Numbered from the stretch's first letter, positions 1,646-22,505 are shown. The stretch: DNA of 26,701 nt from Nannocystales bacterium (GCA_050633305.1 JBOEGF010000030.1:1-26701); one strand, 5' to 3'. Translations and numbers: made by a program. Notes: generated from the letters alone by a model not told the origin.

Positions 1646-2268
1646 CATACGGTTCTGTACTACGGTGTCTTGTCGGCCCGTCACGCCCTGCGCTCGGCGG
1701 TCGTGCCTCGCGCGGAGGAGCCTGCGCCCGAACCCAAGCAACTCGCGCTGTTTGTCCCTCGGGGGTCCATCGAGCTCCCGGGCACCACAACCTTGCTCGG
1801 GGCTCAGCTGCGGGATGCGGCTCCGTCTCGGCTGTCTTGGATGACGCTGCTGGCCCGGGTGTTCCGCATCGACATCTCGGTGTGCGCCCGCTGTCGCGGG
1901 CCCATGCGCGTCACTGGAGCCGTCACCACGCCGCAGGACATCGCGGGCGAGCTTCACGGTGCTCGGCCACCGCCGCGTGGGCCCGTGTCCGGACAACTCC
2001 CGCTGTTCTCGGCAACGTCCTGAGGGGTCTGAGCTGTGGCTGTGGATGGGCACCGCTTCGTGCGGGGCTGGTCTCGGCGTGCCGGGATTCTGGGCCTCGG
2101 GCCTCGGCGGTCGCTTCGGGCCGGCTTTTCGTCACCGATGCCTTCGCTCCGGCACGCTTTGCCTCAATCCACAGCCTCCCGCTGGCCCGCTGCGCGAGCA
2201 CCGCCCTCGGCGGCGAGAGACCGTACTCCTTCGCATCGGCTTTTTCCCACTTCGTTTCGCTTAAACGC
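1646..2268 (+). mobile_element. IS91-like (Y2/HUH rolling-circle) remnant: transposase C-terminus (to stop 2023) plus 3' non-coding end (putative oriIS)
   Basis: HTVLYYGVLS...RLSWMTLLARVFRIDISVCARCRGPMRV matches the IS91-like C-terminal pattern (YxGVL, WxxLLxRVFxID, CxxCxGxM). Homology with the copy at 21789-22091 stops at CGCTTAAACGC (2258-2268). Confidence 0.75.
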
Positions 2269-2298
2269 GGAAATTCATGGTGGTACTCTTGGGCTCGG

Positions 2299-3720
2299 GT
2301 GTCTGGTCTGTTCGGTTTTCGCGCGCACAGGTTGGTGCCATACATCTCGATGATCGCGTCTGTCGGTTGCGCGCCTTCGGTGTACGTGTGCGAGGCCGAC
2401 GCCCAGTGTATGAACGGCAGCGAAGCGGGAACGTGCGAACTGGGCTACTGCGCCTTCGCGGACCCGGACTGCGCGTCTGGGAAGCGATTCGGGTCGCACT
2501 CGGGCAGCCAGACCGGTCAGTGTGTCGACGAGGTGCCAGACGCCACCACCTCTGTAGCAGGGGACGAAACGACAAGCTCACCCGTGCCAGGGTCGACCTC
2601 GACGGCGATCAGCACTTCGGCAGGCACCGGCAGCGACAGCACCGAAGCGCCTCCGGACGACACGGGAGAGATCAGCGGAACGGCTGGGAGCACCACATCT
2701 GGGAGTGCCGGTAGCTCGACCACGGGGTCCTTCGACGACCAACTGCACAACTACGTGTTCATCACCTCAGAGTCTTTCTCCGCTGCGATGGGAGGCATCG
2801 ATGGGGCAGATACGATCTGCCAGTCGTTCGCGGACGACGCGGGCCTTCCAGGGACCTACGTCGCGTGGCTCTCCACCGACGAGCAGAACGCAATCGATCG
2901 GCTTGCCGATGCCCGAGGCTGGGTGCGCGTCGATGGGCGTCCCTTTGCCATGTCTGCGCAGGACATCATCTCGAACGAGACGTTCTACCCGATCCGCATC
3001 GACGACACCGGCAACGACCGGCGATTCTCGAATGCCGTCACCGCGACCGACACCGACGGGACGTTGGGGGGGCCAGGGAACTGCGACGGTTTTACGAGCA
3101 CCGCGGGCCTGGTACGGAGGGGGGTGGCCGATGGACTCGCGACGGCTTTCACCTACGCCTTCGAATCGTCGTGCAGCGCGAACACGCGCCTGCTCTGCTT
3201 CGGCATCGACGATGCGATCGGCACCCCGCTCCTCCTCGATCCCACAGACCGTCGCGCGTTCATTTCGTCTGCCGCCTTCCCTGGCAACGTGGGGTTGAGC
3301 GTCTTCGACGACGCATGCCAGGCTGATGCCGAGGGGGCGAACATCGAAGGGACGTTCCTTGCGTTCGTATCCACCGTCGACATGGCAGCTACCGAGCGCT
3401 TCGATCTGAACGGGCCGTCGTGGTCGCTCGTCAACGACGTGCAAATCGTCGAATCGCCGGCCGATCTCCTGGACGCGGACCCGGTCATCCAGGCGCCGAT
3501 CTGGCGAGATGCTCTTGGCGTTCCCGTGACGAGCGGGCAAGTCTGGACGGGTTCCGAGTCCCCGAGCTTGGCCGGCAGCCCGGCCTCGACCTGCGAAGGG
3601 TGGACATCCGCCGCTGGGGTCGCCCGGGTCGGTCGCCCCGTGCGTTCGGCGGACATGTGGTGGACCGCCGTCGACCGAGACTGCACCGAGCAGAAGCGCG
3701 TGTACTGCCTTCAAGAGTGA
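2299..3720 (+). CDS. Lipoprotein: six-Cys N-terminal module, Ser/Thr/Gly linker, two DUF1554-like (C-type lectin/endostatin-like) domains
   Basis: GTG 2299 gives a signal ending ASVG-C. Repeated domain VFITSESFSAAMGGIDGADTICQSFADDAGLPGTYVAWLST / AFISSAAFPGNVGLSVFDDACQADAEGANIEGTFLAFVST, ending LLCF / VYCLQE. Confidence 0.75.
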   Translation: MSGLFGFRAHRLVPYISMIASVGCAPSVYVCEADAQCMNGSEAGTCELGYCAFADPDCASGKRFGSHSGSQTGQCVDEVPDATTSVAGDETTSSPVPGSTSTAISTSAGTGSDSTEAPPDDTGEISGTAGSTTSGSAGSSTTGSFDDQLHNYVFITSESFSAAMGGIDGADTICQSFADDAGLPGTYVAWLSTDEQNAIDRLADARGWVRVDGRPFAMSAQDIISNETFYPIRIDDTGNDRRFSNAVTATDTDGTLGGPGNCDGFTSTAGLVRRGVADGLATAFTYAFESSCSANTRLLCFGIDDAIGTPLLLDPTDRRAFISSAAFPGNVGLSVFDDACQADAEGANIEGTFLAFVSTVDMAATERFDLNGPSWSLVNDVQIVESPADLLDADPVIQAPIWRDALGVPVTSGQVWTGSESPSLAGSPASTCEGWTSAAGVARVGRPVRSADMWWTAVDRDCTEQKRVYCLQE

Positions 3721-3885
3721 GTCCGGGGTCCTGTCCGGGCGGTGGGAGCGGGGGACCTCCGCCAGTGCAACGCCCGAGATCGGGGCGCGGCCTCGCCCGC
3801 TCAGTGGGTGTCGATCCAGCGTTGCACTTCGTCGCGGGCCTGGGATGTCACCGCTCCTGTGTCGGTGTAGGCCGCGAGCGCGAGC

Positions 3886-3970
3886 TCGAGCTCCCGGGCA
3901 CCACAACCTTGCTCGGGGCTCAGCTGCGGGATGCTGCTCCGTCTCGGCTGTCTTGGATGACGCTGCTGGC
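3886..3970 (+). repeat. 85-bp direct copy of an internal IS91-like transposase segment (1770-1854)
   Basis: 84/85 identical by eye; followed immediately by TAACCGC (3971-3977). Confidence 0.92.
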
Positions 3971-4490
3971 TAACCGCGAGCCCGAGCTGGCCCCTGTCCT
4001 CGAGGTGTCGCTCGAGCTGGTCAACGATACCGAGGAGACATTCTATCTCGTAGAGGAAGGTTCTGGGTGTACTCCGTTCGGCATCCGGCGTGACGGAATG
4101 TGGCTCTCGGCCGAGACGGGATTCCACTGTGGGTGTGAGTGCAATCCGCCCGGCAACCAGATCGGTATGGTCTCCGTCGCGCCCATGCAATCGCTTTCGT
4201 TGTCCTGGGACGGTCGTGCGCTGGCGACCTATACAAGGCACACTCTGTGTGAGGAGAAGCCCTTTCCCCAACGTTGCATCTCGGAAACGGATGGGTCCCC
4301 ACAACCGCTCGAGCCGGGTTCGGTTGAGGTGGTGATACCGGTCCTAGGCCCCGACTCGCCGATGCTGATCCCCGAGCGGCCTCGGATCACCGAGATGTGT
4401 CCAGGGGAGGCATCCTTCTCGATCGCCCTCGAACTCGAAGGCGACGACATCTCCGTTCAGGTCCCACTGAGCACAATCGTCCTGAACTGA
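3957..4490 (+). pseudogene. 5'-truncated Cys-containing exported-type protein fused in frame to a transposase fragment
   Basis: Protein-like sequence EPELAPVLEVSLELVNDTEETFYL...FHCGCEC...LSWDGR starts right after TAACCGC; no native start or signal peptide seen; ATG 3957 comes from the duplicated IS segment. Confidence 0.55.
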
Positions 4491-4529
4491 CCCAGCCGCG
4501 ATCTCGACCTCGGACTCCTCTTCGTTCCG

Positions 4530-4875
4530 CGGGTGCGAGCCTCAGCGCCGCGAGGTCGGGCAACGACTCCGCGTCGCCCCCGAGAAGCCCTGCGGCCTTC
4601 AGCGCTCGCCGATACTCGCGCTCGGTGTTGGGGCTCATCCTCAGCTGGCGAGCGATGCTGAGGGCGCCCTCGCCAAGTGGGTACAGTCGAACGAGCTCTT
4701 GAAGCCGATGCATGCTGATCCTCCGCATTTCGGCAGCATCACCGCATCACCGGTCGCGCCTACGCTGTGCGCTGGCCTCCCCTTCAGGAGGGAGGGGTCA
4801 GTTCTGCCGAGCTGAGGTGGATCAGTTCAGGCGAGCTGGGCCCGGATCAGTTCTGCCGAGCTGGCGTGGATCACA
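4530..4875 (-). mobile_element. istA: IS21-family remnant: left end plus istA N-terminal HTH only
   Basis: MHRLQELVRLYPLGEGALSIARQLRMSPNTEREYRRALKAAGLL; end begins TG (4875) with three 17-bp repeats TCAGTTC(TGC/AGG)CGAGCTG at 4798, 4822 and 4847; no DDE domain or istB. Truncation point approximate. Confidence 0.75.
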
Positions 4876-4897
4876 TAGCCCGAGCCACAACACTCTT

Positions 4898-6256
4898 TGT
4901 GCATGTCAAGACATAGGTGATGTGCATGTCAAGACATAGGTGACACTTCCGATCATTTCATCGGTGACACTTCGGCGTCGCCAACAGGTGACATCCGAGC
5001 CACGCCGGGCGGGACAACGCGGCCACAATCCCAGGTCACGCTGCGAGCTCGAATGTTCCCAGGTCGAGTTCGTAGAAGTGAATCCGAACGCTGTCGGAGG
5101 CGATCGTCTCGATTCCAACTTGGTACCCACGGAAGCCGGACCCGACCTTCAGAAGCTGGCCACGGTATCGAACACGCCCCGACGACTGGACCTTGCGAAC
5201 GACGAAGCTCGACGGGTACCGGGCATTTCGCGTTCTACGGTACAGCCTTGGAGAGCGACGGTAGATGTCGCCGGGCGTGCGCATCTCCAGCGCCTCATGG
5301 GGCCGAACGTGGTTGAACTCTTGTCGCCACTCGTCGAGCTTCGCTTGCTGGGCAGTTTTCGACTTCGCGCCGACATCCTCGACTTCGTACCGCATGTCGA
5401 GATGCATGCGCTCGTGCCCGCCGTTGTCTTGGGGGTGTCCCGGCCGACTTCGATGCACGCGAATCCCAAGCGCAACCCACCATGCTGAGAGAGTCGTCGT
5501 GCCATGCCGCGCCCGGGTCGAGGCGAACGGAGGGCCGTTGTCGACGAGGATCGCGCGAGGAAGCCCGTACGCGTCGAAGAAGCCTTCGAACGCGCTCCTG
5601 ACCGTTTCGGCGGACGAGTTGTCGAGGAGCTGCGCGCCAAGAACGAATCGGCTGTATGCATCTCGGACCGTCAGCGGCTCGCACTTCGCACCGTCCTTGG
5701 AGTTCCACCATCCCTTGAAGTCCACCGTCCACAGGTCGTTGGCGTCCTCCACGTTGGGCGAGGGCGCATCGGTGGGACGGTCGCACTTCACCGCGCGACG
5801 CCGCTTTCGAGCCTCGCCCGCTCGGTCGAGGATGCGTGCGATCGTTCGGACGCTCGGAGCGTCCTCCTGCCCTCGAGACAGTACTTTGTGGAGCTTCTTC
5901 GGGCCCCACCGTGGATGCAGCGCTCGCTGCTCGAGTACCTGCAGCACCATCTCGCCCGAGGCGCGCAGAGGCGAGCTGTGAGGGCGTTTCGACAAGTCCT
6001 CGAGCCCTTGGACCCCCCGCGCTTTGAAGCGCTCCAGCCACTTGTACGCAGTCTTGCGACTGATGCCGTGCTCCCGGCACAGCTCCGAAATGTTCGCGTC
6101 CGGCTCAAGTGCCATGAGCACAAACTGGTGTCGAATCTTCACGACTGACGTCTCCCGCCAGGGCACGGTGCAAGGAGAACATCCCCCTGCGCGAGCGACG
6201 CGAGGTGTTACCCATGTCCTGGCACTGATGTGTCACCCATCTCATGGCACCAGACC
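4898..6256 (-). mobile_element. IS481-family insertion sequence
   Basis: Left end TGTGCATGTCAAGACATAGGTGA with GGTGA(CA) repeats at 4916, 4939, 4963 and 4987; inverted related repeats at 6205-6225 and 6230-6250. No clear target duplication; right boundary approximate. Confidence 0.8.
5036..6166 (-). CDS. IS481-family DDE transposase (HTH plus integrase core)
   Basis: MPWRETSV, ELCREHGISRKTAYKWLERF, WTVDFKG, LVDNGPPF, HPQDNGGHERMH, EFNHVRPHEALEMRTP. Confidence 0.93.
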   Translation of the reverse strand: MPWRETSVVKIRHQFVLMALEPDANISELCREHGISRKTAYKWLERFKARGVQGLEDLSKRPHSSPLRASGEMVLQVLEQRALHPRWGPKKLHKVLSRGQEDAPSVRTIARILDRAGEARKRRRAVKCDRPTDAPSPNVEDANDLWTVDFKGWWNSKDGAKCEPLTVRDAYSRFVLGAQLLDNSSAETVRSAFEGFFDAYGLPRAILVDNGPPFASTRARHGTTTLSAWWVALGIRVHRSRPGHPQDNGGHERMHLDMRYEVEDVGAKSKTAQQAKLDEWRQEFNHVRPHEALEMRTPGDIYRRSPRLYRRTRNARYPSSFVVRKVQSSGRVRYRGQLLKVGSGFRGYQVGIETIASDSVRIHFYELDLGTFELAA

Positions 6257-6294
6257 CGAGGGTCATCGAGCGAGCGCGGAGCGGTGAGCGTGTG

Positions 6295-6954
6295 TCACCG
6301 GTGCCGCCGCGAGACCACCACATAGCGAAGCACACCGCCCACCAAGAGTGCCGCTCCGACCCCCGTGAGGGTGAAGCCGACGCGTTCGTAGCTGCGACCT
6401 CGGTCGACCTCGCGGGAGAAGGCGCCCTCGGTGGGCTCAAGGTCCACGCGCCGCGCGATGCTCCGTGCGCCGACCAGCAGGCCGACTCCGACGCCCGCCG
6501 TGACGAGTCCCGTCCCGCTCAGCACGCCTCCCCAAGGATCCTGGAACCACCGTCGTTGCGGCTCAGCTCGAGGCTGGGGGAGCGCGACCGTTGGCTCGGG
6601 GACGACCGGCGGCGGCGGCTCGACCCTCTCGCGGGGTGGTGACGGCTCGGTGGGTTCGAGTTCGGCGGCGCACTCCTCGACGTGCGCCTGCGCAATCGCG
6701 GCGGCGGCATCGGTCGTCTCTCCCCCCATGAACAGCTCAAACAGCTCGACCGCGACCGCGCAGTCGCCCAGGCGTTTGTAGACGACGGCCCGCGCGTAGA
6801 GCACCTCCGGGTCGGGGTGGGTGCGGTAGAGCGCGTCCAGCACGGCCCTGGCCTCTTCATAGCGCTCCTCGTCGAACAACTCGAGCGCCACCCGCTTGAG
6901 TTGCGCCGGATCTGGAACCAGGGCCAGCGTGAGAGCTAGAAGGAGGTGGACCAC
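6295..6954 (-). CDS. Exported TPR-like protein with Pro-rich linker and C-terminal hydrophobic segments
   Basis: Signal-like N-terminus, helical repeats LFDEERYEEARAVL / VLYARAVVYKRLGDCAVAVELFELF, two Gly-rich hydrophobic stretches; 10 bp downstream of the kinase gene. Confidence 0.75.
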   Translation of the reverse strand: MVHLLLALTLALVPDPAQLKRVALELFDEERYEEARAVLDALYRTHPDPEVLYARAVVYKRLGDCAVAVELFELFMGGETTDAAAAIAQAHVEECAAELEPTEPSPPRERVEPPPPVVPEPTVALPQPRAEPQRRWFQDPWGGVLSGTGLVTAGVGVGLLVGARSIARRVDLEPTEGAFSREVDRGRSYERVGFTLTGVGAALLVGGVLRYVVVSRRHR

Positions 6955-6964
6955 GAGCGCGCCC

Positions 6965-8395: not shown

Positions 8396-8428
8396 CCACG
8401 CCAGCGTACGCAGGTCGGGCGAACCTCT

Positions 8429-9088
8429 TCAACCCTTCGGTTCCGGTCCCTCGAGACGTTTGGGCGCGGAGACTGCGCTGGCATCCATCGTCACGGCGAC
8501 CTCCTGGGTCCACCGCTCGTGCTCGTTCTTCAAGGACGCGCTCAGAGGATGAGGCAGTCGCAGGCGCTCGAAGTGCGAGGCCATTTCCGCCCGCGCCTTT
8601 GACAGCCGGCTGCGAACGGCGCTGCCTGAGATCCCCAGGACCTGTCCCACCTCGCGCGCGTTGAGGCCCTCCCAGTACACCAGCTGCATCGCGACCTGCA
8701 GGTCCATGGGCAGCGCCGCCAGGGCTCGCAGGACGTAGTGGTGCTCCTCGCGACGCGCGAAAAGCCCGGTCAGCGACGTTCGGGTCTCGGGCGAAAATGC
8801 TCGGTTTACGCGAGGTTGCGCCGCGCCGCGCTGCTGGGTCTGGCGCAGCTGCATCAACATCATGTTCCGTGCGATTCCAAACAGGTACGGACGAAACCCG
8901 ACCTCGGGCGAGCACTCGGCGACCCCCTCGAGACAGGCGAGGAACGTCCTCTGCGTCAGGTCGTCCGCGACCCGGCTCAGCCGAGCCTCGAAGAATCGCC
9001 GGACCGAGACGTAGTGTTGGCGAACGAGCGCATCGCCAGCGGCGTTGTCCCCGTCCTTCCACCGTGCCAGTAGCTCGAGATCGTCCAC
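8429..9088 (-). CDS. ECF (sigma-70 group 4) sigma factor
   Basis: Region 2 (DLELLARWKDGD, ADDLTQRTFLACL, FRPYLFGIARN) and region 4 (ALAALPMDLQVAMQLVYWEGLNAREVGQVLGISGSAVRSRLSKAR). Likely GTG start at 9088 within the 626-aa ORF. Confidence 0.92.
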   Translation of the reverse strand: MDDLELLARWKDGDNAAGDALVRQHYVSVRRFFEARLSRVADDLTQRTFLACLEGVAECSPEVGFRPYLFGIARNMMLMQLRQTQQRGAAQPRVNRAFSPETRTSLTGLFARREEHHYVLRALAALPMDLQVAMQLVYWEGLNAREVGQVLGISGSAVRSRLSKARAEMASHFERLRLPHPLSASLKNEHERWTQEVAVTMDASAVSAPKRLEGPEPKG

Positions 9089-9145
9089 CCGGGCGCATCC
9101 TGGCACAGGCGCGGCTGGGTCGCAGCCTGCTATTGTTCGGACCGC

Positions 9146-10924: not shown

Positions 10925-10958
10925 GCAGTTCGCCGCGACCGCGATCGCGGCTACAAAC

Positions 10959-10989
10959 TTCCTTGGACACCTTCGTCGGCTCGGGCAAC
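10959..10989 (+). promoter_or_regulatory. Bipartite motif TTCCTTGGACAC-N11-CGGGCAAC, copy 1 (candidate ECF promoter)
   Basis: Identical boxes and spacing at 15850-15880; 20 bp before ATG 11010. Confidence 0.6.
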
Positions 10990-11009
10990 CGAGTGTCCGA
11001 AGGCTGACG

Positions 11010-12725
11010 ATGCGCGAACCCGAGACCCCCTGTTGTCGAGCCCTCATCTGGGCTTTCCTGCTCACCGCACCGGGGTGCTACGCCGGCCTCGAGCTCGACG
11101 TTGACCCGTACCCCGACGCCTCCGGTGGCGAGGACGGCGAGGACGGCGAGGACGGCACATCAGGCGAGAGTGGCGGGGAGACCGGGGGTATCTCGGACGA
11201 CGCCGACTCTGCGTGCGGTCCGGCGGGGACCAACGTAATCGCGACCGCGCCCATGCGACGGCTCACTCGCCACGAGTACAATAACACGGTCCGCGACGTG
11301 CTCGACGACCACACCCAGCCCGCGGACGCCCTCGGCGTCGATATCAAGACGACCGGACGCGGCTTCGATGCCAATCGCCTCAACGACCTCACCACCGACG
11401 GTGTGGAAGACCTGCTCGGCACCGCCGAGGCCGTTGCCGCACGGGCGGTCGTCGAGCACGACCTCCCGACGTGGTTGGGGTGCGACCCGGACGTAAAGAT
11501 CTGCGTTGAGAGCTTCGTGGCGGAGAAGGGACGCCTCTTGTACCGCCGCCCCCTCACCGACGAGGAGCGGACCGCGGTCATGAGTGTGTACGGCGACGCG
11601 GCTGAGGAGGGAGGCCCGCAGGAGGGCATGGAGGCCGCGCTGACCGCGATGCTCGCCTCTCCGCACTTCACCTACCTCGTGGAGTTGGGTGAGCCCGTCG
11701 AGCCGGGCAGCCTCGTCCTGCGGCTCTCGTCCTACGAGGTCGCGGCCCGGCTTTCCTACTTCCTATGGTCATCAGGTCCGGACAGCACCCTCCTGGACCG
11801 GGCCGAAGCCGGAGCACTCGACGACCCGGCGGCGATCGAAGCGGAGGCCCGACGCATGCTCGCCGACGACCGGGCCCGCGACACGATCGGAACGTTCACG
11901 AACCAGTGGCTGCGGATCGACACCCACCTGGCCGAGGTGGACGACGCAGGACGCGACGCTGCGCTGTATCCGATGTGGTCCGAGACGCTGCGTGACTCGA
12001 TGCTCGAGGAGCTCACCCTCTTCGTCGACGATATTGTGCGCATCCGCGGACTGGGCGTCGACGAACTCCTCACGGCCTCCTATGGCTTCGTCGACGCAGA
12101 CCTCGCCGAGGTCTACGGCGTCGAGGCTCCGGCTCTGCCGATGATGCGGGTAGAGCTCGACCCGCAGACCCGTTCGGGGCTCCTCACGCGCGCGGCCGTG
12201 ATGGCCTCGAGCGCCTCCTCTCCCAACGAGCCAAACCTCATTTATCGCGGGCTCCTGGTCCGAAACGAGCTGATGTGCGGCAACCTCGAGCTGCCGGAGA
12301 TGGATGTCGACCAGCAGCTGTCCTCCGCGGAGCGCGTCGCCGACCCGTACTGCGGAACGTGTCACAGCCTCGTAGACCCCTTGGGACAGACGTTCGACGC
12401 GTACGACTCGATCGGTGCGCTTCGAACCATGGACAATGAGGGGAATCCGATCGACGCCACGGGGGTGTTATTCCCGCCTGAGACTCTCGCCGGTCCCGGA
12501 GCGCTCATCGACGAACTCATCGACTCCGAGACGGTCGATGACTGTCTCTTGGAGCGATGGACCGAGTTCGGGCTGCGAACCGAGGGCGGTATCGAGAACG
12601 AGGAGTGCACGCTGGAAGTCGTGCGTGAGGCCTACGAGAGCAGCGGCCACGACCTGCGCGAAGCCATCGTGGCGTTGACCACGACGGACGCGTTCCGGTT
12701 CCGCCGACTCGCCGAAGAAGACTGA
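11010..12725 (+). CDS. DUF1592-family multi-domain lipoprotein (DUF1587/1595/1592/1588-like) with a CxxCH motif
   Basis: MRRLTRHEYNNTVRDVL, LYRRPLTDEE, MLASPHFTY, YEVAARLSYFLWSSGPD, RSGLLT, CGTCHSLVDPLG; lipobox APG-C. Confidence 0.9.
   Translation: MREPETPCCRALIWAFLLTAPGCYAGLELDVDPYPDASGGEDGEDGEDGTSGESGGETGGISDDADSACGPAGTNVIATAPMRRLTRHEYNNTVRDVLDDHTQPADALGVDIKTTGRGFDANRLNDLTTDGVEDLLGTAEAVAARAVVEHDLPTWLGCDPDVKICVESFVAEKGRLLYRRPLTDEERTAVMSVYGDAAEEGGPQEGMEAALTAMLASPHFTYLVELGEPVEPGSLVLRLSSYEVAARLSYFLWSSGPDSTLLDRAEAGALDDPAAIEAEARRMLADDRARDTIGTFTNQWLRIDTHLAEVDDAGRDAALYPMWSETLRDSMLEELTLFVDDIVRIRGLGVDELLTASYGFVDADLAEVYGVEAPALPMMRVELDPQTRSGLLTRAAVMASSASSPNEPNLIYRGLLVRNELMCGNLELPEMDVDQQLSSAERVADPYCGTCHSLVDPLGQTFDAYDSIGALRTMDNEGNPIDATGVLFPPETLAGPGALIDELIDSETVDDCLLERWTEFGLRTEGGIENEECTLEVVREAYESSGHDLREAIVALTTTDAFRFRRLAEED
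11127..11156 (+). repeat. In-frame 9-bp tandem repeat (GGCGAGGAC)x3.3 encoding GED
   Basis: Read directly in the linker of the DUF1592 gene. Confidence 0.85.
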
Positions 12726-14078: not shown

Positions 14079-14162
14079 GGCACCAGCCCATTGCGACCAC
14101 AGCCCGGGTGACCGACTGCCCAAAGTGCAGGAAGTCCGGCGCTCGGAAAGCGCCCCGCACGG

Positions 14163-14813
14163 TCACTCCTGGCAGACGGTCCCGCTGTCGTCTCCCTGCG
14201 TGTAGTCGGCGCACCCGTCGCATGCGTCTTCGGACCACGTGAATACGATGGGCTCCTCGCCGCCGGTGACGGTGATGGTCCCGACATAGAACTCGTCGTC
14301 GCAGGCGGTGTCCTCGGCGTTCGAGACGATGCCCGACACGGCCAGGGTGGCATCGTCAAAGACGATGGTTCCCGAGATGTCGCTGGTGCCGCTGTCATTG
14401 AAGGAGGCTGCGAGCCAGCCCTCGCTGTCGCTGTAGGTGAGGTCCTCGTAGGACCAGGCTGTGTCGAAGGTGTCTGCGATGAGGGATCCGTTGATAACGA
14501 GGCTACCGCTGCTGTTCTGCCGCATCTCGCCGTCGTAGACAAACCGTCCATCGATTCCGAAGCCATCGAATTCGTAGGTGTCGGCGTCGGCTCCTTGGCT
14601 GACGACGACGGTCCCCACCCACGCCTGGTCGTCGTCATCGGTACAGTCACCGGTGATGGTCATCGCCGTCTCGGTCTGGGTGATGGCCGGGCAGGCATCT
14701 TGGGCGAGCACGAGGACGTTGGTCAACACCAGCCAGACAGCTGGAAGCGTGACGGCGGCGAGGGTCTGGGCGGGACTGACTGCGTTGGAAGATGCAGGGC
14801 TCTCGTCGGTGAA
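14163..14813 (-). pseudogene. 5'-truncated acidic, Cys-containing exported-type protein
   Basis: Protein-like from FTDESP (ACPAITQTETAMTITGDCTDDDDQAWVG, ACDDEFYVG, ACDGCA); no start codon of its own before the hipA sequence begins. Confidence 0.55.
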
Positions 14814-14814
14814 T

Positions 14815-15375
14815 CTCGTTGGCGGGCAGCCACCCGAACGCCGGGTTGGGCAGCTTGAGAATGTGGGTGGAGGGCGCGCCGGCGAGGGGCAACAGGATCG
14901 CGTCGGCGTGTACGCACACCGGGAGCTTGTCTTGCGCACCCGCGAGCGAGAGCCGATTGCTCTCGTCGAGCGTGGCTGCGACCGCGACTGGCTCGACGAG
15001 GCGCGCGAGTTCGGCGGGGGATAGCTGCCGGTAGTGCCCCACAGGCTCGCTCGCAGCTGGTTCCCGGTCGACATCGAGGACCAACGCACCCGCACACTCG
15101 CCGCCCAGTGCGACCAGGAGCCGCCAGTCATCGTCGGGCGCGATCCTCAGGCGTCGGGCAATTCGCTCGCGAGTGCTGCCCTCGGGCAGCAGGTTGTCGA
15201 ACCAGGCATGGACACCCTCCTCGATCGCGGGCTCCTGGAGCTGCAGCGAGCTCGAGACCGGCCACGCGTCGTCGGCCCCCAGCCAGCTCGGCGCATATGT
15301 GAATCGCCAGGGCTCGAGCACTCCGACGAGGGTGCCGCGGTAGCGGACGAAGAGACGCTGCGGCGACTCGTTCAT
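14815..15375 (-). pseudogene. hipA: hipA-like toxin, truncated after about 187 aa
   Basis: HipA N-terminal domain (FTYAPSWL, PVSSSL, WFDNLLPEG, GGECAGAL), P-loop SLAGAQDK, THILK, ANE; the C-terminal catalytic half is absent. Confidence 0.85.
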
Positions 15376-15614
15376 GCGTCGGCTCGATCCGAAAGGCTCA
15401 GCGAGACGCGGACTCCGAGTATTTCGAGGACGGCGAGCACCTTCCCGAGCTGAAGCGATGCCTTGCCGGCCTCGAGCTCACCAATGAAGCGCGGACCTAC
15501 GAGCGCGAGCTCACCGAGCTGCACCTGTGTGAGCTGCTGCGCCTTGCGTCGCAGGCGGACGACTGCACCGATCGCCTTGGGGGAGCGAGCGTCGATATGT
15601 TGGAGGGCCGCCAT
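15372..15614 (-). CDS. hipB: HipB-like XRE HTH antitoxin/repressor
   Basis: IGAVVRLRRKAQQLTQVQLGELALVGPRFIGELEAGKASLQLGKVLAVLEILG; 4-bp ATGA overlap with hipA. Confidence 0.88.
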   Translation of the reverse strand: MAALQHIDARSPKAIGAVVRLRRKAQQLTQVQLGELALVGPRFIGELEAGKASLQLGKVLAVLEILGVRVSLSLSDRADA

Positions 15615-15732
15615 CTTCCCGAGCGGGAAGATTAGCGGAGAGATGCCCTCGATTCCAGAAGAAACTTCCCGCTCGGGAAGATCAGGACTCGCCAGACGGC
15701 TAGATGGAGACAATCTTCCCGATCGGGAGGAT
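15613..15732. promoter_or_regulatory. Three palindromic operators ATCTTCCCG-NN-CGGGAAGAT
   Basis: Copies at 15613-15632 (perfect), 15663-15682 and 15713-15732 (one mismatch each); exactly 50-bp period, immediately upstream of hipB. Confidence 0.85.
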
Positions 15733-15849
15733 TTGGGGCGAGCGCTCGCGTCCGAGCGAAGCGGAGCGTGGCGGCTCGTCGTCCATCCCGCGAGCGTGAC
15801 GCCGAGGGTCGGATTCATCGCGTCCGTAGCGTAGCTGCGCCTACACAAG

Positions 15850-15880
15850 TTCCTTGGACACGGATCGCGACCCGGGCAAC
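15850..15880 (+). promoter_or_regulatory. Bipartite motif TTCCTTGGACAC-N11-CGGGCAAC, copy 2
   Basis: Matches 10959-10989; 53 bp before GTG 15934. Confidence 0.6.
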
Positions 15881-15933
15881 GGATGGCGTGACGCGGCGGT
15901 GTGCCGCACCACCCCCACCAAGGAAGCGCTCCC

Positions 15934-17142
15934 GTGAACACGCCAATTTCTCATCTCCACACGCTGGTTCTCATCTCATCGGTCCTCTGCGGTTGCGCGG
16001 AGGGGGACGTCGTCGACCTCGACGCCGACGACACCGACCAGGCCGCAGAGACGGACGAAGACTGGGACCCCGTGGCCGCAGCCTCGCCTGCGCCGACGCT
16101 GCGCTTCAAGAAGGACGCGTACTTCACTAACGAAGGCACCGGCAAAGCGAACGTCGTCGTACAGCTGAGTCAGGCGAGCAGCAGCGAGGTGTCCGTGGCG
16201 TACAAGACGCGCTCCGGGACTGCGCGGGCGACCGACGACTTTCATTGGGGGAACGACGTCTTGGTCTTCGCGCCCGGCCAGACTCGGAAGACCGTCACCG
16301 TGGATCTTCGGGATGACGACAAGCCGGAGGACGACGAGATCTTCACGGTACGGCTGTCCAATCCCAAGAACGCGAACATCACGACGGGATCCGTCAACGT
16401 GACGATCGTCGACGACGACGGTGGTTCGGGCGGTGGTTCGGGAGGCAGCTCGGGCAGCGCGTGCCCCTCCGATGACGACCTCCTGTGGGAAGACGACTTC
16501 ACCCCGTTCGACGTGTCCGACTACCACAAGCAATACAGCTGCGCTGCGAGCTCCCTGGACGTGGTGAACGGCGCACTGCGGATCACGACCGACGCAGGCC
16601 CGGTGACGCCCGGATGTTCGTACTTCTCGAACAACGAGTACGAGCAGAGGAAGCACCGCACCGAGCTCAGCGTGAACGCCTCTCGAACCCCGGCCGGCGA
16701 ACCTTTGTGGCTGAAGTTTCGCTTCAAGCTGGCCTCCGACAATCTGCCGGTGGGCCACATCTTCCTGCAGATGAACGGGAGCGAGCCCAACGTGAGATCC
16801 AACCCGGAGATCATCTTCCACCGCCAGGGCTCCAACATCACCGTGAACATCATGGCAAGGGACGGGAACCTCACCGTAGGCCCGGCCCAGACCGACGAAT
16901 GGGTCGACATGGTCGTGCACGTCAAGCAGTCGCGCGGCAACGACGGCTTCTTGAAGGTGTGGATGAACGGCGAGAAGCGCATCGACTACACCGGGAAGAC
17001 CAAGCGCTTCGCGGATCAGACGGAGCAGATCTTCAAGTTCGGAAACTACTGGGGCGAAACGAGTGGGTCGGGCAATCGCGTGGCGTTCTTCGATGACCTG
17101 AAGATCGGCTCGGGGGCCCCGCCGGCCTGCGTGCTGGAGTAG
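15934..17142 (+). CDS. Lipoprotein: Calx-beta domain plus polysaccharide-lyase-like beta-jelly-roll domain
   Basis: Lipobox LCG-C; Calx-beta (SGTARATDDF, LVFAPGQTRKTVTVDLRDDDKPEDDEIFTVRLSNP, VTIVDDD); lyase-like HRTEL, IFLQM, WVDMVVHVKQSRGNDGFLKVWMNG, FKFGNY, FFDDLKIG. AGGAAG upstream of the GTG. Confidence 0.8.
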   Translation: MNTPISHLHTLVLISSVLCGCAEGDVVDLDADDTDQAAETDEDWDPVAAASPAPTLRFKKDAYFTNEGTGKANVVVQLSQASSSEVSVAYKTRSGTARATDDFHWGNDVLVFAPGQTRKTVTVDLRDDDKPEDDEIFTVRLSNPKNANITTGSVNVTIVDDDGGSGGGSGGSSGSACPSDDDLLWEDDFTPFDVSDYHKQYSCAASSLDVVNGALRITTDAGPVTPGCSYFSNNEYEQRKHRTELSVNASRTPAGEPLWLKFRFKLASDNLPVGHIFLQMNGSEPNVRSNPEIIFHRQGSNITVNIMARDGNLTVGPAQTDEWVDMVVHVKQSRGNDGFLKVWMNGEKRIDYTGKTKRFADQTEQIFKFGNYWGETSGSGNRVAFFDDLKIGSGAPPACVLE

Positions 17143-17152
17143 GGGCAGCCCT

Positions 17153-18517
17153 GTGGAGACTTCGGTGCCCAAGCAGGACTCGCGGCGTATGGTCTGGACA
17201 GCCGGATGCTGGCTCGGAGCCGCGCTCGCGGTTGCGTGCAGCCCAGGCGAGTTCGAGTGCCAAGACGACTCGATGTGCGGTCGGAGCGGGTCTTGCGAGC
17301 CCAACGGGTTCTGCAGCTTTTTCGACCCTGACTGTCCTTCGGGTTGGCGATATGGGGAGCACGCAGCGCCGTCCCTCGCCTCCACCTGCGTCGTCCCACC
17401 GACACAGACGGACGGCGAGACGGAGTCTCCTCCCCCCGTTGAAACGACCGATGCGTCGTCTTCGACGGGCGCGTTTGATCCCGGCTCGTCCTCAGAGACG
17501 ACGGATGAGCCGGTGGTCGATGCGGGGGGGAGCACGACCGAGTCGGAATCTGGGGTCGAGGTCGATGGCGAGCGCATCGAGTTGCCCGAGGGGTGGGACG
17601 CGGGCGTGTGGTTCGACTTCTCCGACGCGTTCACGTTCGACCCCGCCGCCTTCCCTGATCCACCGTCGACGACCTATAGCAACCTGCCCCAAAACCTCTT
17701 CGTACTTCCGGATGCGTTCCCGGGCGAACTCGGCATCGTCACGGCACATACGCTCATCGAGCTCGGAGAGGAGTACGCCGAACGCAACTTCTACGACATC
17801 ACCGGGGCAGGCCCATATGCGATGTGGCAAGGCGTGGATTGCTCCGGGTTGAACGCGATGCCGGCCGCAGTGTGCGTGGGTGCGGGCGCGTTGGGAGCCA
17901 ATGGTGATGGCGTGTTCGTCGTCGATCCGAGCTGGACGATGTCCGCGTTGTCCTCGCTCAACAACAGCAATGCGCTGGGTTTCGATCCCGCTGGGCTGTT
18001 CGACGGCGTGGGTGAACCGACGCTCTACATCGGGACACCGTCGAATCTGATGCGCTACCCGGCCGACCCGATCCTCGGTTCGAGCCTACGACCCCGGCAG
18101 GTGCTCGTGGACGGTTCTTTCGCCATGATTCGCGACAACCTCGAGGTCGGCTTGCAGCAGCTGGTGGTGTTTGCTTCGTCCGTTCGTGAACCGAGCGTCT
18201 TCAAGAACCAGCCGCTGCCCGAGGTCGTGCTCAGCGCCCAGAACCCGGGCGCTCTCGAGATCGTCACGGGCGATCCCGCGGCCTTCGGAGGCTACCTGCA
18301 CGCCATCGTCGATACGCATCGACTCGTCGAGTTCGGCGCGGACGGGGCAGAGACGGAGCTGGCCGAGTCCGACCCGCAGCGGGGGTGGCGTTGGGCCTCG
18401 GCCGTGGTTCCGCCGCTGTCTCACCCGTTGGCGGACGGTCGGACCACCTTCTACGTGCTCGAGTCCAATCGTGACCTCGACGTCGACCGCGTGATCTGGA
18501 TCCGTCCGCCGCTGTAG
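17153..18517 (+). CDS. Lipoprotein with six-Cys module, Ser/Thr linker and beta-rich (possibly propeller-like) C-terminal domain
   Basis: Lipobox AVA-C then FECQDDSMCGRSGSCEPNGFCSFFDPDCPSGWRYG; C-terminal fold is a guess. Confidence 0.7.
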   Translation: METSVPKQDSRRMVWTAGCWLGAALAVACSPGEFECQDDSMCGRSGSCEPNGFCSFFDPDCPSGWRYGEHAAPSLASTCVVPPTQTDGETESPPPVETTDASSSTGAFDPGSSSETTDEPVVDAGGSTTESESGVEVDGERIELPEGWDAGVWFDFSDAFTFDPAAFPDPPSTTYSNLPQNLFVLPDAFPGELGIVTAHTLIELGEEYAERNFYDITGAGPYAMWQGVDCSGLNAMPAAVCVGAGALGANGDGVFVVDPSWTMSALSSLNNSNALGFDPAGLFDGVGEPTLYIGTPSNLMRYPADPILGSSLRPRQVLVDGSFAMIRDNLEVGLQQLVVFASSVREPSVFKNQPLPEVVLSAQNPGALEIVTGDPAAFGGYLHAIVDTHRLVEFGADGAETELAESDPQRGWRWASAVVPPLSHPLADGRTTFYVLESNRDLDVDRVIWIRPPL

Positions 18518-18586
18518 ATCTCGTGTAAACTCTGCGGCGACCGAGATGCCGCACTCCGACTACGCCTGCAGGGAATCGCCGCGCGC

Positions 18587-19030
18587 ATGAGCAGCGGGCC
18601 CACCCGAACCGTCGAACGCGACGTGCAGTCGAGCACGCAGGCCGCGACGGCGCGCCTGGTGTTCGTGCATCCTCCCGAACGGGAGACGGCGATCGATCTT
18701 CGGCTGGGTGCGACGACGATCGGTCGCGAGGCAGCCGACGGGGTCGCGGTCGTTCCCCATGCCGCGGTGCCTCGCCGTCATCTGCTGATCGAACGCACGG
18801 GTGCGGCGGTTGTCGTCTCTGACCAGGGAAGCCACAACGGAACCTGGCGCGGGGGTGTCCGCCTGCGGGGGGCGCCCACGCCCCTGGGGCATGGCGACGT
18901 GCTGCGTTTGGGCGATGTCAGCGGGGTCGTGGAGATCGCGGGCGACGGCGACGCCCCCCACACACGACTTCCAGACTGGTCTCTCCCCCCCCCCCCGCGA
19001 TATCCCCGGACCGCTGCGGACGTTGCATGA
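18587..19030 (+). CDS. FHA-domain protein, probably a truncated regulator
   Basis: TTIGRE, VPRRH, DQGSHNGT, LGHGDVLRLGD; the conserved SRxH serine reads Pro; degenerate tail over a C12 run. Confidence 0.7.
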   Translation: MSSGPTRTVERDVQSSTQAATARLVFVHPPERETAIDLRLGATTIGREAADGVAVVPHAAVPRRHLLIERTGAAVVVSDQGSHNGTWRGGVRLRGAPTPLGHGDVLRLGDVSGVVEIAGDGDAPHTRLPDWSLPPPPRYPRTAADVA

Positions 19031-19033
19031 GTC

Positions 19034-19918
19034 GTGAAGACATTGATTCCTACGCTTACCGTGCCGCTTTCGGTGCTGCTGACAACCGCCTGTGGTTCCG
19101 CCGTTGCCGACAACGCCGACGGCACAACCAGCGGAAGTGGTGCTTCCGTGGAGACCTCCGAGTCCTCGAGCTCGGGCGACGTGCTCACGCCCCAAACCAC
19201 CACGGGCGGGTCGACGTCAGGCGAACCCGCTAGCAGCTCCTCAGACACCACAACCGGGCTGACAACCTCCGCCGAGTCTTCGTCCACCGGGGCCCCCGTA
19301 TTCTGCGGCTCTCCCCTCCTCGACCCCGACGACCGCCTCCAGCTCGCAAACGCCCCAACGCGCGGCAATCCGGACGCTCTGGTCACGCTGGTGGTCTGGA
19401 CCGGCTATGCCGACCCGTTCTCGCGCTCGCTGCAGAGCACGTTGTCGGGGCTGGCGGACGGACCGCTCGGCGACGAGCTTCGTATCGTCTCCAAGCAGAT
19501 GCCGCTGCCGTTTCAGGACCCCCGCAGCCGGCTCGCGCGGGCCGGCCTCGCCGCCCACGCGCTGGGGTTGTACTGGCCATTCCACGACGCCATGTTTGCC
19601 GCCGAGGATGACCTCGAGCCGGACGTCGTCGACGCGATCGCGCTCGACGTGGGCCTCGACCTGGACGCCTTTCAGACCGCGATGGACAGCCCCGAAGTCG
19701 CCGAGCAGCTTGCTGAGGACATGGCATTGTTCGCGGCCGTCGGTGGCAAGGGCACGCCGTCCAGCGTCGTCAACGGCCAATTTCTCTCGGGCGCCCAGCC
19801 GCCGGAGGTGTTCGAGGAAGCCGCCGAGTCTCAGCGCGCTGCGATGGAGGAACTCATCAACGACGGCGTCCCGGCATGCGTCGCGTTCGAGCAACGCCTC
19901 GACGACCAACTGCCGTAA
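19034..19918 (+). CDS. DsbA-like thioredoxin-fold lipoprotein lacking CxxC
   Basis: Lipobox TTA-C; APTRGNPDALVTLVVW, KQMPLPF, YWPFHDAMF, GTPSSVVNG, SGAQP; the active-site position reads ADPFS. Confidence 0.82.
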   Translation: MKTLIPTLTVPLSVLLTTACGSAVADNADGTTSGSGASVETSESSSSGDVLTPQTTTGGSTSGEPASSSSDTTTGLTTSAESSSTGAPVFCGSPLLDPDDRLQLANAPTRGNPDALVTLVVWTGYADPFSRSLQSTLSGLADGPLGDELRIVSKQMPLPFQDPRSRLARAGLAAHALGLYWPFHDAMFAAEDDLEPDVVDAIALDVGLDLDAFQTAMDSPEVAEQLAEDMALFAAVGGKGTPSSVVNGQFLSGAQPPEVFEEAAESQRAAMEELINDGVPACVAFEQRLDDQLP

Positions 19919-20151
19919 CGAGGTCGAGCGAACCGTCGTGCCCAGGTGCTCAAGGCCCCGGGGCCGCGGACCACGAGAATCTCGAGCTTGGCGGCGACCT
20001 GATCGCGGCCATCGTGGTGGTCGAAGACGAAACGCTCCTGGTCCCTGGCGGTGACGGGCTCACGGCGCTGCGCGTGCGGTGATCGCCCCGGGGCCGGAGC
20101 AACCCATGGCCTGAGGGGCGTGCGCGTAGGGGGGTGCCACTCTCTCGCCCC

Positions 20152-20547
20152 ATGCACCGCGCGATCGCCCTCATCGCCCACGACGAGAAGAAGCCCGGGC
20201 TGATCGCCTTCGCACGCGCACACGCCCAGCGCCTCGCCGAGCACCCGCTGGTGGCCACCTGCACCACGGGCAAGTTGCTCGTCGCCGAGACCGGTCCGCA
20301 CGTCGAGGCGCTGCTCTCGGGGCCGCTGGGCGGTGATCAGCAGATCGGTGCGCGCGTCGCCGAGGGGCGCATCCTCGCGGTTGTGTTCTTCCGCGACCCG
20401 CTTACGGCCCAGCCACACGAGCCCGACGTCTCCGCGCTGATGCGGATCTGCGACGTGCACGACGTCCCGCTGGTGACGAACCGGGCGGGCGCCGAGGCCC
20501 TGATGCCGTGGTTGGCCACGCTCGCGTCGCCCGACCCCGCCGGCTGA
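20152..20547 (+). CDS. mgsA: Methylglyoxal synthase
   Basis: IALIAHDEKK, SGPLGGDQQIGA, FFRDPLTAQPHEPDVSALMRICDVHDVPLVTN. Confidence 0.95.
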   Translation: MHRAIALIAHDEKKPGLIAFARAHAQRLAEHPLVATCTTGKLLVAETGPHVEALLSGPLGGDQQIGARVAEGRILAVVFFRDPLTAQPHEPDVSALMRICDVHDVPLVTNRAGAEALMPWLATLASPDPAG

Positions 20548-20764
20548 GCGAGCGTGTCGATCATGGCCATCCCGTCAGCACCACGTCGAGGCGCCGCTGG
20601 GTCACCCTCTCCCAGGCCGCCGCATCCTCGGGCCGGACCCCGTCGCGTCCCATCGCCTCCCAGTCCGCACCCGCCGAGCCCAGGCCGAGCCACTCCAGGG
20701 GAGACCAGTCTGGAAGACATGTTCTGTGAAACGGCCGGGCGCCGCGGTCGACCCCTGCGGTGCA

Positions 20765-20944
20765 ATGTAGAGCCCCCGAAACCTCTATCCTGACACCACG
20801 CTGTACATCACGGTCGGCGCTGTTCGCCGCAGCTACCGCCTCGTCCCCAAGAATCGCGTCAATCGCGTCATCCACTATGCCTTCGCGGTCGTGTCCTCAA
20901 GGTACAGGGAAGAATGGGGCATGGAGTTCTATGAGTTCGAGGCG
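20765..20944 (+). pseudogene. N-terminal remnant resembling a Y1/RAYT-like HUH transposase
   Basis: Manual translation M*SPRNLYPDTTLYITVGAVRRSYRLVPKNRVNRVIHYAFAVVSSRYREEWGMEFYEFEA, ending where the SNHxH motif would be expected. Recognition from memory only. Confidence 0.45.
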
Positions 20945-20949
20945 TTTAA

Positions 20950-21311
20950 TTTATTCGCTTCGCCCGAGATCGTTGCGCCAGATACTCGGCCGACGCGGCT
21001 GGGCTGCCCGCGAGCGAGGGTCCCACGGCGGCTTCGCGAGAGCGCCGGCGCTGGCGACCTCGGTTGGCGTTGAGGCCTCGTCGGATCGCGGTCCGCAGCA
21101 ACCAGGCGCGAATGTCGTCGTGATGAGGGTCGAGAGGCTTCTCGCCGAGCGTGATGAACACCTCCTGCGCGAGCTCCTCCGCTTCAGCCCAGCCGGCACA
21201 GACCCGGGCCAGCACGCGCACAACGAGCGGTCGATATTGGCGGAATGCCGCCGCCAGCGCGTCAGGCCTGTCGCGCAACAGGGTCGCTCTGCATCGTTGT
21301 GAAGCCACCAT
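20950..21311 (-). pseudogene. ECF sigma factor fragment (region 2 only)
   Basis: AFRQYRPLVVRVLARVCAGWAEAEELAQEVFITL...IRAWLLRTAIRRGLN; stops at TTAAACGC with no region 4. Start uncertain. Confidence 0.75.
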
Positions 21312-21788
21312 ACATGTGGACACCGCGGGCCCGAGGTCTGTGACACCGGGTGGTCCGGCCCCAACGGAGCGCGGCCTCCGCGTGCGTGAGATCCGTACAA
21401 GAAGGGTACGTCGGCGGGGAACTCGGATGCTCCCGTTGGGCCGCCCGATTGGCCCAACTACTTCGTGCCTCGAGACCTCCTCGTTCACAGAGGCCAGCGG
21501 GCCAGGCCCCGCGGCCGAGCCCGGTCTTGCGCCGATCCACCTTTGGCCGCTATCCGGCGGGGATCGGCGAGTCAGATTCCGGTTGTGTAAAGGCCGGCGC
21601 AGGTCCAGAACGTCGGGGCGACACACGAGCCCGGGAAGGAGGTGTTGTTGCGCGCGGTCTGGACAATGAGGACGCCCTCGCCAAGGCTCACGCGGAGGAA
21701 GGCCCCGTCACCAGACTGGACTCCGTACCCGAAATCGTCCAGCTCGACGAGCCCCGACTTAGCCTGAGTGTTGCGCAACGTCAATCGC

Positions 21789-22091
21789 CCACCGCCGCGT
21801 CGGCCTGCGTCCGGACAACTCCTGCTGTTCTCGGCCCCGCGCTGAACGCTCAGGGCTCTGCCGGTGGATGCGCGCCGCTTTGCACCGCGCTGGTCTCGGC
21901 GTGCCTGGGTTTTGGCCCCGGTGGCTGCGCGTTGCGCTTCGGGCCCGCCTTTGGGCCCCTATGCCTCTGCTCTGCCAGGCTCAGCCCAAATCCACAGCCG
22001 GCCGCTGGCCCGCTGCGCAACGACCGCGCTCGCTGGCAGGAAGCCGTACTCCTCCGCCCCTGCTTTTTTCCATTTCATTCCGCTTAACCGC
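21789..22091 (+). mobile_element. Second IS91-like 3' end (diverged paralogue of 1967-2268)
   Basis: Encodes PPPRRPASGQLLLFSAPR* versus PPPRGPVSGQLPLFSATS*; shared blocks GCTGGTCTCGGCGTGCC, AATCCACAGCC, CCGCTGGCCCGCTGCGC, CCGTACTCCT; ends CGCTTAACCGC. Confidence 0.78.
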
Positions 22092-22303
22092 AGAAGCTGC
22101 ACACATCGGTCATCCTCCCAATCGTGGAGGATCCACGACAAGACGTAGGCGTCGGCGGAGGGTAGAGGATCGTTGAATGCATCCAGTGCGCTCAACGTGG
22201 CTCGTGGTCGCTGCGCATCCCCCATCGCAGGCGCATTGGCGGCGATGACCTCGGGTCGGTCGATGAGGGTTCCGCGTAGTTTCGGAGTTGCGGTGAGGAT
22301 CGC
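22092..22303 (-). pseudogene. Internal fragment of a SAM-dependent O-methyltransferase
   Basis: AILTATPKLRGTLIDRPEVIA...DAFNDPLPSADAYVLSWILHDWEDDRCVQLL; bracketed by TCCGCTTAACCGC at 22079-22091 and 22304-22316. Confidence 0.85.
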
Positions 22304-22505
22304 TCCGCTTAACCGCTAACCGCCGAGGCCGAGGCATAGGGTGACAGCGAGCAGTGTACGGGGAGACTGGTGCGGCATCGCTGGGGTTGTTCCGCCCCAG
22401 GCCGAGCGGTTTAAGCGTTCCCGAGAAATTGTTTCGGCCCCAGGCGCAGCGCAACGCGACACGGCAGATAGACCCGCTGGTGCTTCCGAGATACCCTCGT
22501 CAGGG

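Follow-up and report, generated by a model that had tools for sequence, protein, structure and literature searches.

ISCR elements are blamed for bringing many resistance genes into pathogens. Transposition of IS91 is described as acting on the bottom strand, with the cut placed between the flank and the ori end (PMC13181058), and the tyrosine count of the transposase separates ISCR (Y1) from IS91 (Y2) (PMC10288648). In the usual model DNA is carried on the ter side, yet the variable DNA often lies on the ori side. The DNA beside oriIS is variable in ISCR1 (PMC6218425), the oriIS of ISCR27 has been described (PMC8894482), and a sandwich of a remnant and a second oriIS is known for ISCR28, as cited in PMC12772301. 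IS801 of Pseudomonas syringae forms miniature right ends in vivo, which are bounded by tetranucleotides (PMC3189936); IS801 mini-ends and ISCR sandwiches are already published. Here, we analysed a stretch of 26,701 nucleotides (nt) from a Nannocystales bacterium (GCA_050633305.1, JBOEGF010000030.1:1-26701; hereafter the window), in which the short motif TAA[AC]CGC lies where gene fragments meet. The original prediction had taken this motif for a minimal nick and join site that an HUH enzyme encoded elsewhere reuses to assemble mosaics of host gene pieces. Judging from its homology to ISCR ends (TATACGC), the motif is the oriIS terminus of an ISCR/IS91-type HUH element.

The window is the complete contig C30 of an assembly (G000) of 11.0 Mb, with 66% GC, 90 contigs and 92% completeness. 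It was compared with the congeners G003 and G004, whose regions were picked by transposase matches, so that copy densities there are not genome averages. Further genomes (G024 and G020) were also used, together with an outside run, which has a word share of 0.09 and holds contigs of a relative only. A transposase match was present in 53 of the 72 genomes of the family, and the records with close transposase relatives are labelled Nannocystaceae or unclassified metagenome-assembled genomes, so that the source is probably a Nannocystaceae-type myxobacterium. In a bin labelled Sandaracinaceae (L143), the transposase was 87% identical to the congener one, which suggests either spread across myxobacterial families or mis-binning.

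The element is of the IS91/ISCR type, as had been claimed. The window carries its 3' end only, and the domain evidence (PF04986 and PF14319) comes from the near-complete copies on contigs C40 and C50. The intact transposase has ∼495–496 amino acids and is 31% identical to that of ISCR2/ISVsa3 from end to end, with the HLH and CRY motifs aligned. The CRYLLRPP stretch aligns with CRYISRPA of ISCR2 and has no second tyrosine four residues on, which points to a single-tyrosine (Y1) enzyme. By these alignments, the element belongs to the ISCR subgroup of the IS91 family, without the IS91 target tetranucleotide. The ends of ISCR2, ISCR1 and an element that we take to be ISCR3-like (its database record reads IS91 family) are CCTATACGT, CCTATACCC and CCTATACGC, respectively, ∼235 nt after the stop codon. 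The family in the window ends with CGCTTAAACGC, 237–245 nt after the stop, and other genera of this family end with TTAAGCGC, TTAACCGC or CTATACGC, thereby bridging to the ISCR ends. The identification of the motif as the oriIS terminus rests on this homology together with the bridging forms.

Full-length elements were found, and the same terminus was seen in full copies and pieces. The element has no terminal inverted repeats, as the left ends are unrelated in sequence to the ori end. Sixteen left ends start near CTGCCGAG repeats or GTGTGGCCAATGATG, the start is variable, and some copies include the upstream flank. The full-length left ends of G003 and G004 carry 1–7 tandem CTGCCGAG units, and the C40 copy (∼23890–23910) has CTAGAG repeats at this place; these repeats possibly represent stuttering at terIS. 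When the last 100 nt of the ori were folded for three copies, each fold was different. An intact enzyme encoded elsewhere in the genome, which had been supposed, was not found: the 92%-complete assembly gave 24 transposase matches and no intact copy. Both near-complete copies are broken, the C40 copy by a stop codon and the C50 copy by a split over frames, and the arrays in this genome are therefore dead or imported. Intact copies were found in G003 and G004.

A recheck of the window confirmed the letters and positions on which the prediction was built, including the five TTAA tetramers at 2261, 20946, 22084, 22309 and 22411 (1.27 expected from the genome-wide rate; probability of at least five, 0.01). 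The heptamer TAA[AC]CGC occurs six times, at 2262, 3971, 22085, 22310 and 22317 on the plus strand and at 20948 on the minus strand. The genome-wide rate predicts 0.73 (probability of at least six, 1.1e-4); without the two element ends, the probability of at least four is 0.0065. Five of the six marked places are true breakpoints backed by homology. The features involved are given in Table 1.

Table 1. Positions in the window of the element pieces, the ori stubs and the genes that they adjoin.
Feature	Coordinates	Strand	Remark
5'-truncated ISCR-like element	1645..2268	+	last ∼125 transposase codons, stop at 2023; 245-nt oriIS region ending CGCTTAAACGC
Source stretch of duplicated internal piece	1770..1854	+	99% identity over 85 nt with 3886–3970
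Internal transposase piece	3886..3970	+	copy of 1770–1854, co-oriented, downstream of parent
7-nt ori stub TAACCGC	3971..3977	+	exactly between insertion sequence piece and headless gene
Headless gene	3978..4490	+	in-frame fusion to insertion sequence piece; from homologue comparison
RAYT-like HUH transposase gene, 5' piece	20698..20941	+	cut just before H-Y-H motif
8-nt ori stub TTAAACGC	20942..20949	-	ori side meets RAYT-like piece; donor genes without motif at cut
ECF-type sigma factor gene, C-terminally truncated	20950..21305	-	region 2 only; PF04542 sole domain
5'-truncated ISCR-like piece, 306 nt	21785..22091	+	ends in private variant TCCGCTTAACCGC
Internal O-methyltransferase piece (segment X)	22092..22303	-	both ends cut; fills gap exactly
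13-nt ori stub	22304..22316	+	same as end of 22091 piece; starts where methyltransferase homology stops
Stacked 7-nt ori stub TAACCGC	22317..22323	+	same stacking at C50:38289 and in congeners
Look-alike CGCTTAAACCGC, outside the system	22406..22417	-	bridged by 94%-alike contig

The motif was correctly reported to end both IS91-like remnants, as the ends at 2268 and 22091 are shared with ∼21 other copies in the genome (∼23 sharp right ends in all). The larger remnant is 78–82% alike to the near-full-length copies on C40 and C50. At 3971, the internal transposase piece is fused to a gene without a head: the open reading frame after 3977 matches three homologues of 262–279 amino acids from about its first residue, and these homologues have ∼105 more N-terminal residues. 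At 20942, the RAYT-like homologues (80–84% alike, on C26, C2 and C20) part ways exactly after 20941, a break that is also present in the outside run, and the truncated sigma factor gene lies opposite. The closest relatives of the sigma factor are 31–35% identical and the position of its cut is approximate. At 22304–22323, the O-methyltransferase homology stops at 22303 and the match to an outside contig begins at 22322. The methyltransferase piece is 83% identical in amino acids to a gene on C32, with 10, 4 and 40 mismatches at codon positions 1, 2 and 3. The 13-mer TCCGCTTAACCGC has only two copies in 11 Mb, at 22079 and 22304 (225 nt apart). Under the capture model proposed below, the stretch 21785–22323 would be the product of two events: a 7-nt stack and a 212-nt capture with a 13-nt re-copy.

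The variant at 22406–22417 had also been counted among the junctions, which did not hold up: a 94%-alike contig (one record, depth 3.8) runs unbroken from 22322 to 22681, with C at 22411. The same contig removes an attC-like or inverted pair of 22310 and 22406 from consideration. A degenerate plus-strand ori piece at 20953–20959 (TTCGCTT, 7 nt) is too short for any claim.

The bare heptamer was ruled out as a genome-wide marker of breakpoints. It has 299 copies in the genome with no enrichment at breakpoints. Near elements its enrichment was 1.3-fold (p=0.34) and 2.0-fold (p=0.043, with three of the nine counts coming from the window itself), compared with 1.56-fold for all TAA. Neither form ranked within the top 15 of 125 TAA heptamers genome-wide. 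In the congener islands, TAAACGC was modestly enriched (18 against 7.5 expected; rank 8 against the TAA background, p=0.011). The ori motif does lie at the joints of gene-fragment mosaics, both in this genome and in the congeners; it is the heptamer on its own that fails as a marker.

The donor loci bear directly on the nature of the motif. Five loci have a full ori terminus next to DNA for which a homologous donor exists, and none of the five donors carries the motif at the cut; the motif is therefore not a host site. From these sequences, the element brings the motif along, in the form of a shortened copy of its own end. No preferred tetranucleotide was found after the ori (the commonest 4-mer occurred in 3 of 76) and no ter-like tetranucleotide at the left cuts (22 different 4-mers in 29 rows, one of which is a parent). 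Two ISCR2 ends also differ immediately past the terminus. We found no simple insertion whose flanks are contiguous; the flanks map to different loci. In this genome, 22 flanks have a homologue, and in 10 of them the element boundary coincided with the start of homology (left side, 7 of 14, from 53 examined; ori side, 3 of 8, from 29 examined), compared with 7 of 74 controls (from 287 examined; Fisher p=4e-4). A plain insertion into a gene that has a paralogue would give the same coincidence; in these cases, however, the flanks on the two sides match separate loci.

Two other kinds of ori joint were observed in the congeners. Three ori ends (G003:C34 5917 and 7303, and G004:C28 76915) break off at TTAA and run on into GGG(C/G)ACCTCTAT(T/C)TAT, which forms the right portion of a 28-nt site. 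This site is intact at G003:C20 ∼70260 and G004:C28 ∼75518, begins GTTGCG..TAA, and its fused pattern was not found in G000. The ori end ATTTCGCTTAA resembles a XerC arm of dif/pdif sites, and the fused ends may be Xer-type crossovers. At G004:C28 69993–70013, two 8-nt ori stubs stand back to back as the palindrome GCGTTTAA-CTAG-TTAAACGC.

The congener arrays showed how the stubs relate to longer copies. In 657 kb of G003 and G004, 92 ori-bearing pieces of 25–1857 nt were mapped, and 76 of them stop at exactly the same base; small slips occur in the A run of the ori ends. Shorter stubs of 7–22 nt (including 11, 12, 16, 17, 18 and 22 nt) are also present, and TTAAACGC was observed eight times outside the mapped pieces against 1.07 expected. 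The lengths thus grade continuously from 7 nt to past full length. Ends are stacked flush, with 7, 31, 60 and 67 nt. In G004, a tract that is 97% alike to G003 stops exactly at the 11-nt CGCTTAAACGC, a layout identical to that at 22304 in the window.

The arrays are polarised. Of 81 pairs of neighbouring pieces, 66 share one orientation. A count out to 30 kb from 14 full-length elements placed 22 truncated copies (at least 95% alike; 20 distinct) downstream, two upstream and two inverted; upstream DNA was added for balance, which gave 275.6 and 275.5 kb of available sequence. At G024:C13 16459–55433, four to five full-length elements that are 99.5% identical stand in one orientation, with a shared upstream flank and a different sequence after each ori.

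The DNA between the ori ends was described by the original prediction as mosaics of host gene pieces. The mosaics are real; the pieces are largely DNA of related species. On C50, seven co-oriented ends, 93–97% alike, separate pieces that are 78–87% alike to resident loci. One of them, a gyrB fragment, has an open frame with 29, 19 and 180 mismatches at codon positions 1, 2 and 3. It matches the resident gene and two other species at 82–83%, and those are 83–86% alike among themselves; by sequence, this piece diverged as a working gene in another species before its capture. One G004 array contains pieces that are 97–99% alike to G003 (77–81% to residents), 96% alike to a resident locus, and 80% alike to both. 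Between twin elements in G003, pieces are 96% and 82% alike to G004, one matches the chromosome of G003 itself at 100%, and the upstream flank of the element recurs as a 415-nt copy. The inserts are concatemers whose inner joints have no ori. As far as these comparisons reach, the cargo is mixed, often foreign (from congeners) and cut mid-gene. ComEC was detected in five of five genomes and in 10 of 14 controls, and gives little information on competence.

We consider it probable, with a good deal of room for error, that a rolling circle is aborted after re-copying n bases of the ori end, and that a scrap of DNA joins at the ori nick, which would build a one-way array. The HUH transposase would nick the bottom strand at the ori, and the 5' end of the element would be held as a phosphotyrosine. 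The freed 3'-OH of the flank Y would be extended leftwards by n bases, in rolling-circle fashion, and would stop early. A scrap X, either foreign or native to the chromosome and sometimes made up of several pieces, would then link the new 3' end to the held ori end. The product would be E-ori / X / E(n)-ori / Y, in which the element stays in place with a new ori neighbour and a partial copy of its end lies downstream. Without X, a stacked end such as TTAACCGC-TAACCGC would result. Either the transposase or host repair could make the second joint. This one-step model expects exact ori ends, random left ends, co-oriented downstream daughters and flush stacks, all of which were observed. It also expects daughters to share the private variants of their parent, as was seen. 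In four clinical ISCR2 plasmid loci, a longer copy lies upstream, X is found at its ori, and a 5'-shortened copy follows downstream. The one-way pattern suggests how ISCR elements acquire new genes.

Several observations weigh against this model. In the window, one mismatch separates the stub at 3971 from the TAAACGC end at 2268, no minus-strand parent lies near the 20942 stub, and the two long pieces, of 623 and 306 nt, are alike at only 76.5% and lack a close parent; these features would fit an old or imported relic. No close donor was found for three searched inter-ori stretches. The cargo is partly the genome's own, with one insert 100% and others 93–96% alike to the own chromosome, and junction overlaps of 0–6 nt fit both transposase joining and host repair. 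The copies within an array are not independent: counted by array, eight are downstream-only, one is mixed, one is inverted-only and three are daughterless, and some arrays have little upstream sequence in this count. A looser test, which took for each of 57 pieces the best longer relative at least 95% alike, placed that relative upstream in 31 cases, downstream in 10, elsewhere or inverted in 13 and tied in three. One ISCR2 locus has a third copy that is longer than its upstream neighbour. All of the close genomes are metagenome bins, and no raw reads that cover the junctions were found. ISCR transposition itself is described as unproven in two sources (PMC13393415, PMC9376610), and every chemical step of capture is one that we infer from sequence.

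The aborted rolling-circle model has to be set against four other explanations. Classical one-ended rolling-circle transposition, with local hopping, ter-side mobilisation and later decay to stubs, is unlikely in our view, with a chance that deserves attention. IS801 makes right-end pieces of 229, 360 and 679 nt in vivo, and its authors put most genomic fragments down to reorganisation (PMC3189936); termination fails in 1–14% of IS91/IS1294 events (PMC13181058), and the genome studied here holds many internal element fragments without ori. The IS801 miniatures, however, end at consensus tetranucleotides and the myxobacterial pieces do not. The 7–13-nt stubs could hardly mobilise X, because they are far shorter than the 82-bp right end used for IS91. 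The 22:2 downstream bias is not expected from random hopping, and decay leaves unexplained both the flush stacks and a stub that shares the private variant of a copy 225 nt upstream. It is also rather improbable that the transposase makes the lesion only, and that a nick or collapsed fork at the ori is patched by host end joining or template switching. The partial ori copy would then stem from limited synthesis. Ku is present in G000, G003 and G004, some left joints have overlaps of 4–6 nt, and the concatemer inserts with ori-less joints as well as the A-run slips would suit host repair. Ori stacks and repeats nevertheless occur in G024 and G020, in neither of which Ku was found (both 94% complete), and the 76 base-exact ori ends among 92 are predicted by strand transfer, not by resection.

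Artefacts of assembly or binning, with chimeric joins at repeats, are very unlikely to account for the arrays. The genomes are metagenome-assembled, this transposase is commonest in two public records, both of them bins that share a sample label, some duplicated stretches are 99.6–100% alike, and no reads from the source were found. The donor loci nonetheless carry no element at the joint, which leaves no shared repeat for a misjoin; stubs of 7–13 nt are too short to drive misjoins, the same layout recurs in several genomes, genera and complete plasmids, and the outside run contains two of the breakpoints of the window. The host-site explanation, in which TAA[AC]CGC is reused by an enzyme encoded elsewhere, retains scarcely any credibility. 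It would account for the six heptamers in the window against 0.73 expected, and for the three congener ori ends joined at TTAA to a site that, when intact, reads (T/C)TAA there. Opposed to it are the five donors without the motif at full ori joints, the 299 genomic heptamers with weak enrichment near elements, and the continuum of stub lengths with long pieces.

A broader reading of the aborted rolling-circle model is that ISCR-type elements are stationary, polarised sites of DNA acquisition, at which scraps are ligated independently of sequence and arrays record DNA of congeners. We put this forward tentatively, as a possibility more doubtful than not. The scraps would be single-stranded, derived from transformation, lysed neighbours or prey, and the ori end would be partly re-copied each time. 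If true, it would explain why, in clinical ISCR1 and ISCR2, resistance genes lie on the ori side and are followed by a shortened copy. Should the scraps stem from incoming DNA, species could gain genes from one another by a route that needs no homology. The window is itself a dead relic, and the link between ISCR and capture is already known in general. The myxobacterial arrays supply more than 100 natural junctions, near-identical parent-daughter series and intact congener transposases, and allow a test of the one-step model, which predicts the order ori / X / partial ori on the downstream side alone and with no target site.

Contig C30 is rich in mobile DNA, with IS110, IS481, IS630-like and IS256 transposases. 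The RAYT-like HUH family (a 401-amino-acid open reading frame with no Pfam match) recurs beside ISCR arrays, at C26 ∼66500–67800, C20 ∼100800–101900 and C50 ∼12055–12212, and the full-length ISCR on C50 directly abuts the 3' flank of a RAYT-like element. The full-length C26 protein has a THYH motif and a weak match to NF047646 (E=0.0065, 16.4 bits against a cut-off of 80). In the window, an inverted 25-nt copy (88%) of the RAYT-like 5' end (20698–20722) lies at 18962–18986, 1.7 kb upstream of the RAYT-like element, and is followed by a C12 run; it may be a REP-like end. An IS630-like element at 24119–26670, with 35-nt inverted repeats (24119–24153 and 26636–26670), is split by an intact IS256-family transposase gene at 24906–26123. 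The end of another insertion sequence at 4535–4990 contains three 21-nt repeats (4795–4864) and a 19-nt tandem repeat (∼4900–4945), and adjoins an apparently intact IS481-family element at 5036–6240. On the minus strand at 14650–15941, a helix-turn-helix gene precedes an N-terminal piece of HipA, which passes into unrelated sequence; this truncated hipBA-like pair has no ori motif at its cut.

An Rfam search gave 0 matches. The literature search returned no account of 7–13-nt stubs, polarised ori-stub arrays, capture of congener DNA or the one-step model; key reviews lay outside it, so the model may be in print. Among the known systems, ISCR1, ISCR2/ISVsa3, ISCR27 and ISCR28 share with the myxobacterial family a transposase with a zinc finger, an HUH motif and one tyrosine in CRY, and a sharp oriIS end ∼235–245 nt after the stop with ACGC-like final letters. 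The myxobacterial family differs in its chromosomal arrays, with dozens of copies in each genome, in stubs as short as 7 nt, in flush stacks and in a measured one-way growth. Its cargo consists of random chromosomal scraps, including gyrB, instead of selected resistance genes, and its transposase scores 124.5 against the NF052416 cut-off of 925.

The IS801 miniatures are likewise the product of an IS91-family enzyme and keep the right end, with the ori intact and the left side shortened. They come in three sizes, with GAAC-like tetranucleotide ends and clean target insertion, whereas the myxobacterial lengths are continuous, with no tetranucleotide on either side and flanks from different loci. 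The tetranucleotides of IS91 proper (IS91, IS801 and IS1294) were not seen in this family. Read-through past the left end, which copies the upstream flank (415 nt), recalls IS91 and IS1294; no target duplication was seen among the flanks, which map to different loci. IS91 needs CTTG or GTTC targets and carries DNA on its ter side (PMC13181058); the myxobacterial arrays, in contrast, gain DNA on the ori side and have no target motif.

Helitrons, too, are rolling-circle elements of the HUH type and put together gene-fragment mosaics (PMC10288648). The myxobacterial protein of ∼496 amino acids has no RepHel helicase and only IS91 domains in Pfam, there is no AT or TT target, and the cargo builds up outside the end of the element and not inside the moving unit. 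Integron cassette arrays and CRISPR spacer acquisition offer an analogy: they likewise grow in a polarised manner beside a fixed element, with a repeat between acquisitions. No attC site, fixed repeat, integrase or Cas1 was noticed in the myxobacterial arrays, although no search aimed at IntI was made; the repeats there are the ends of a transposon, from 7 nt to >1.8 kb long, and the inserts are cut mid-gene.

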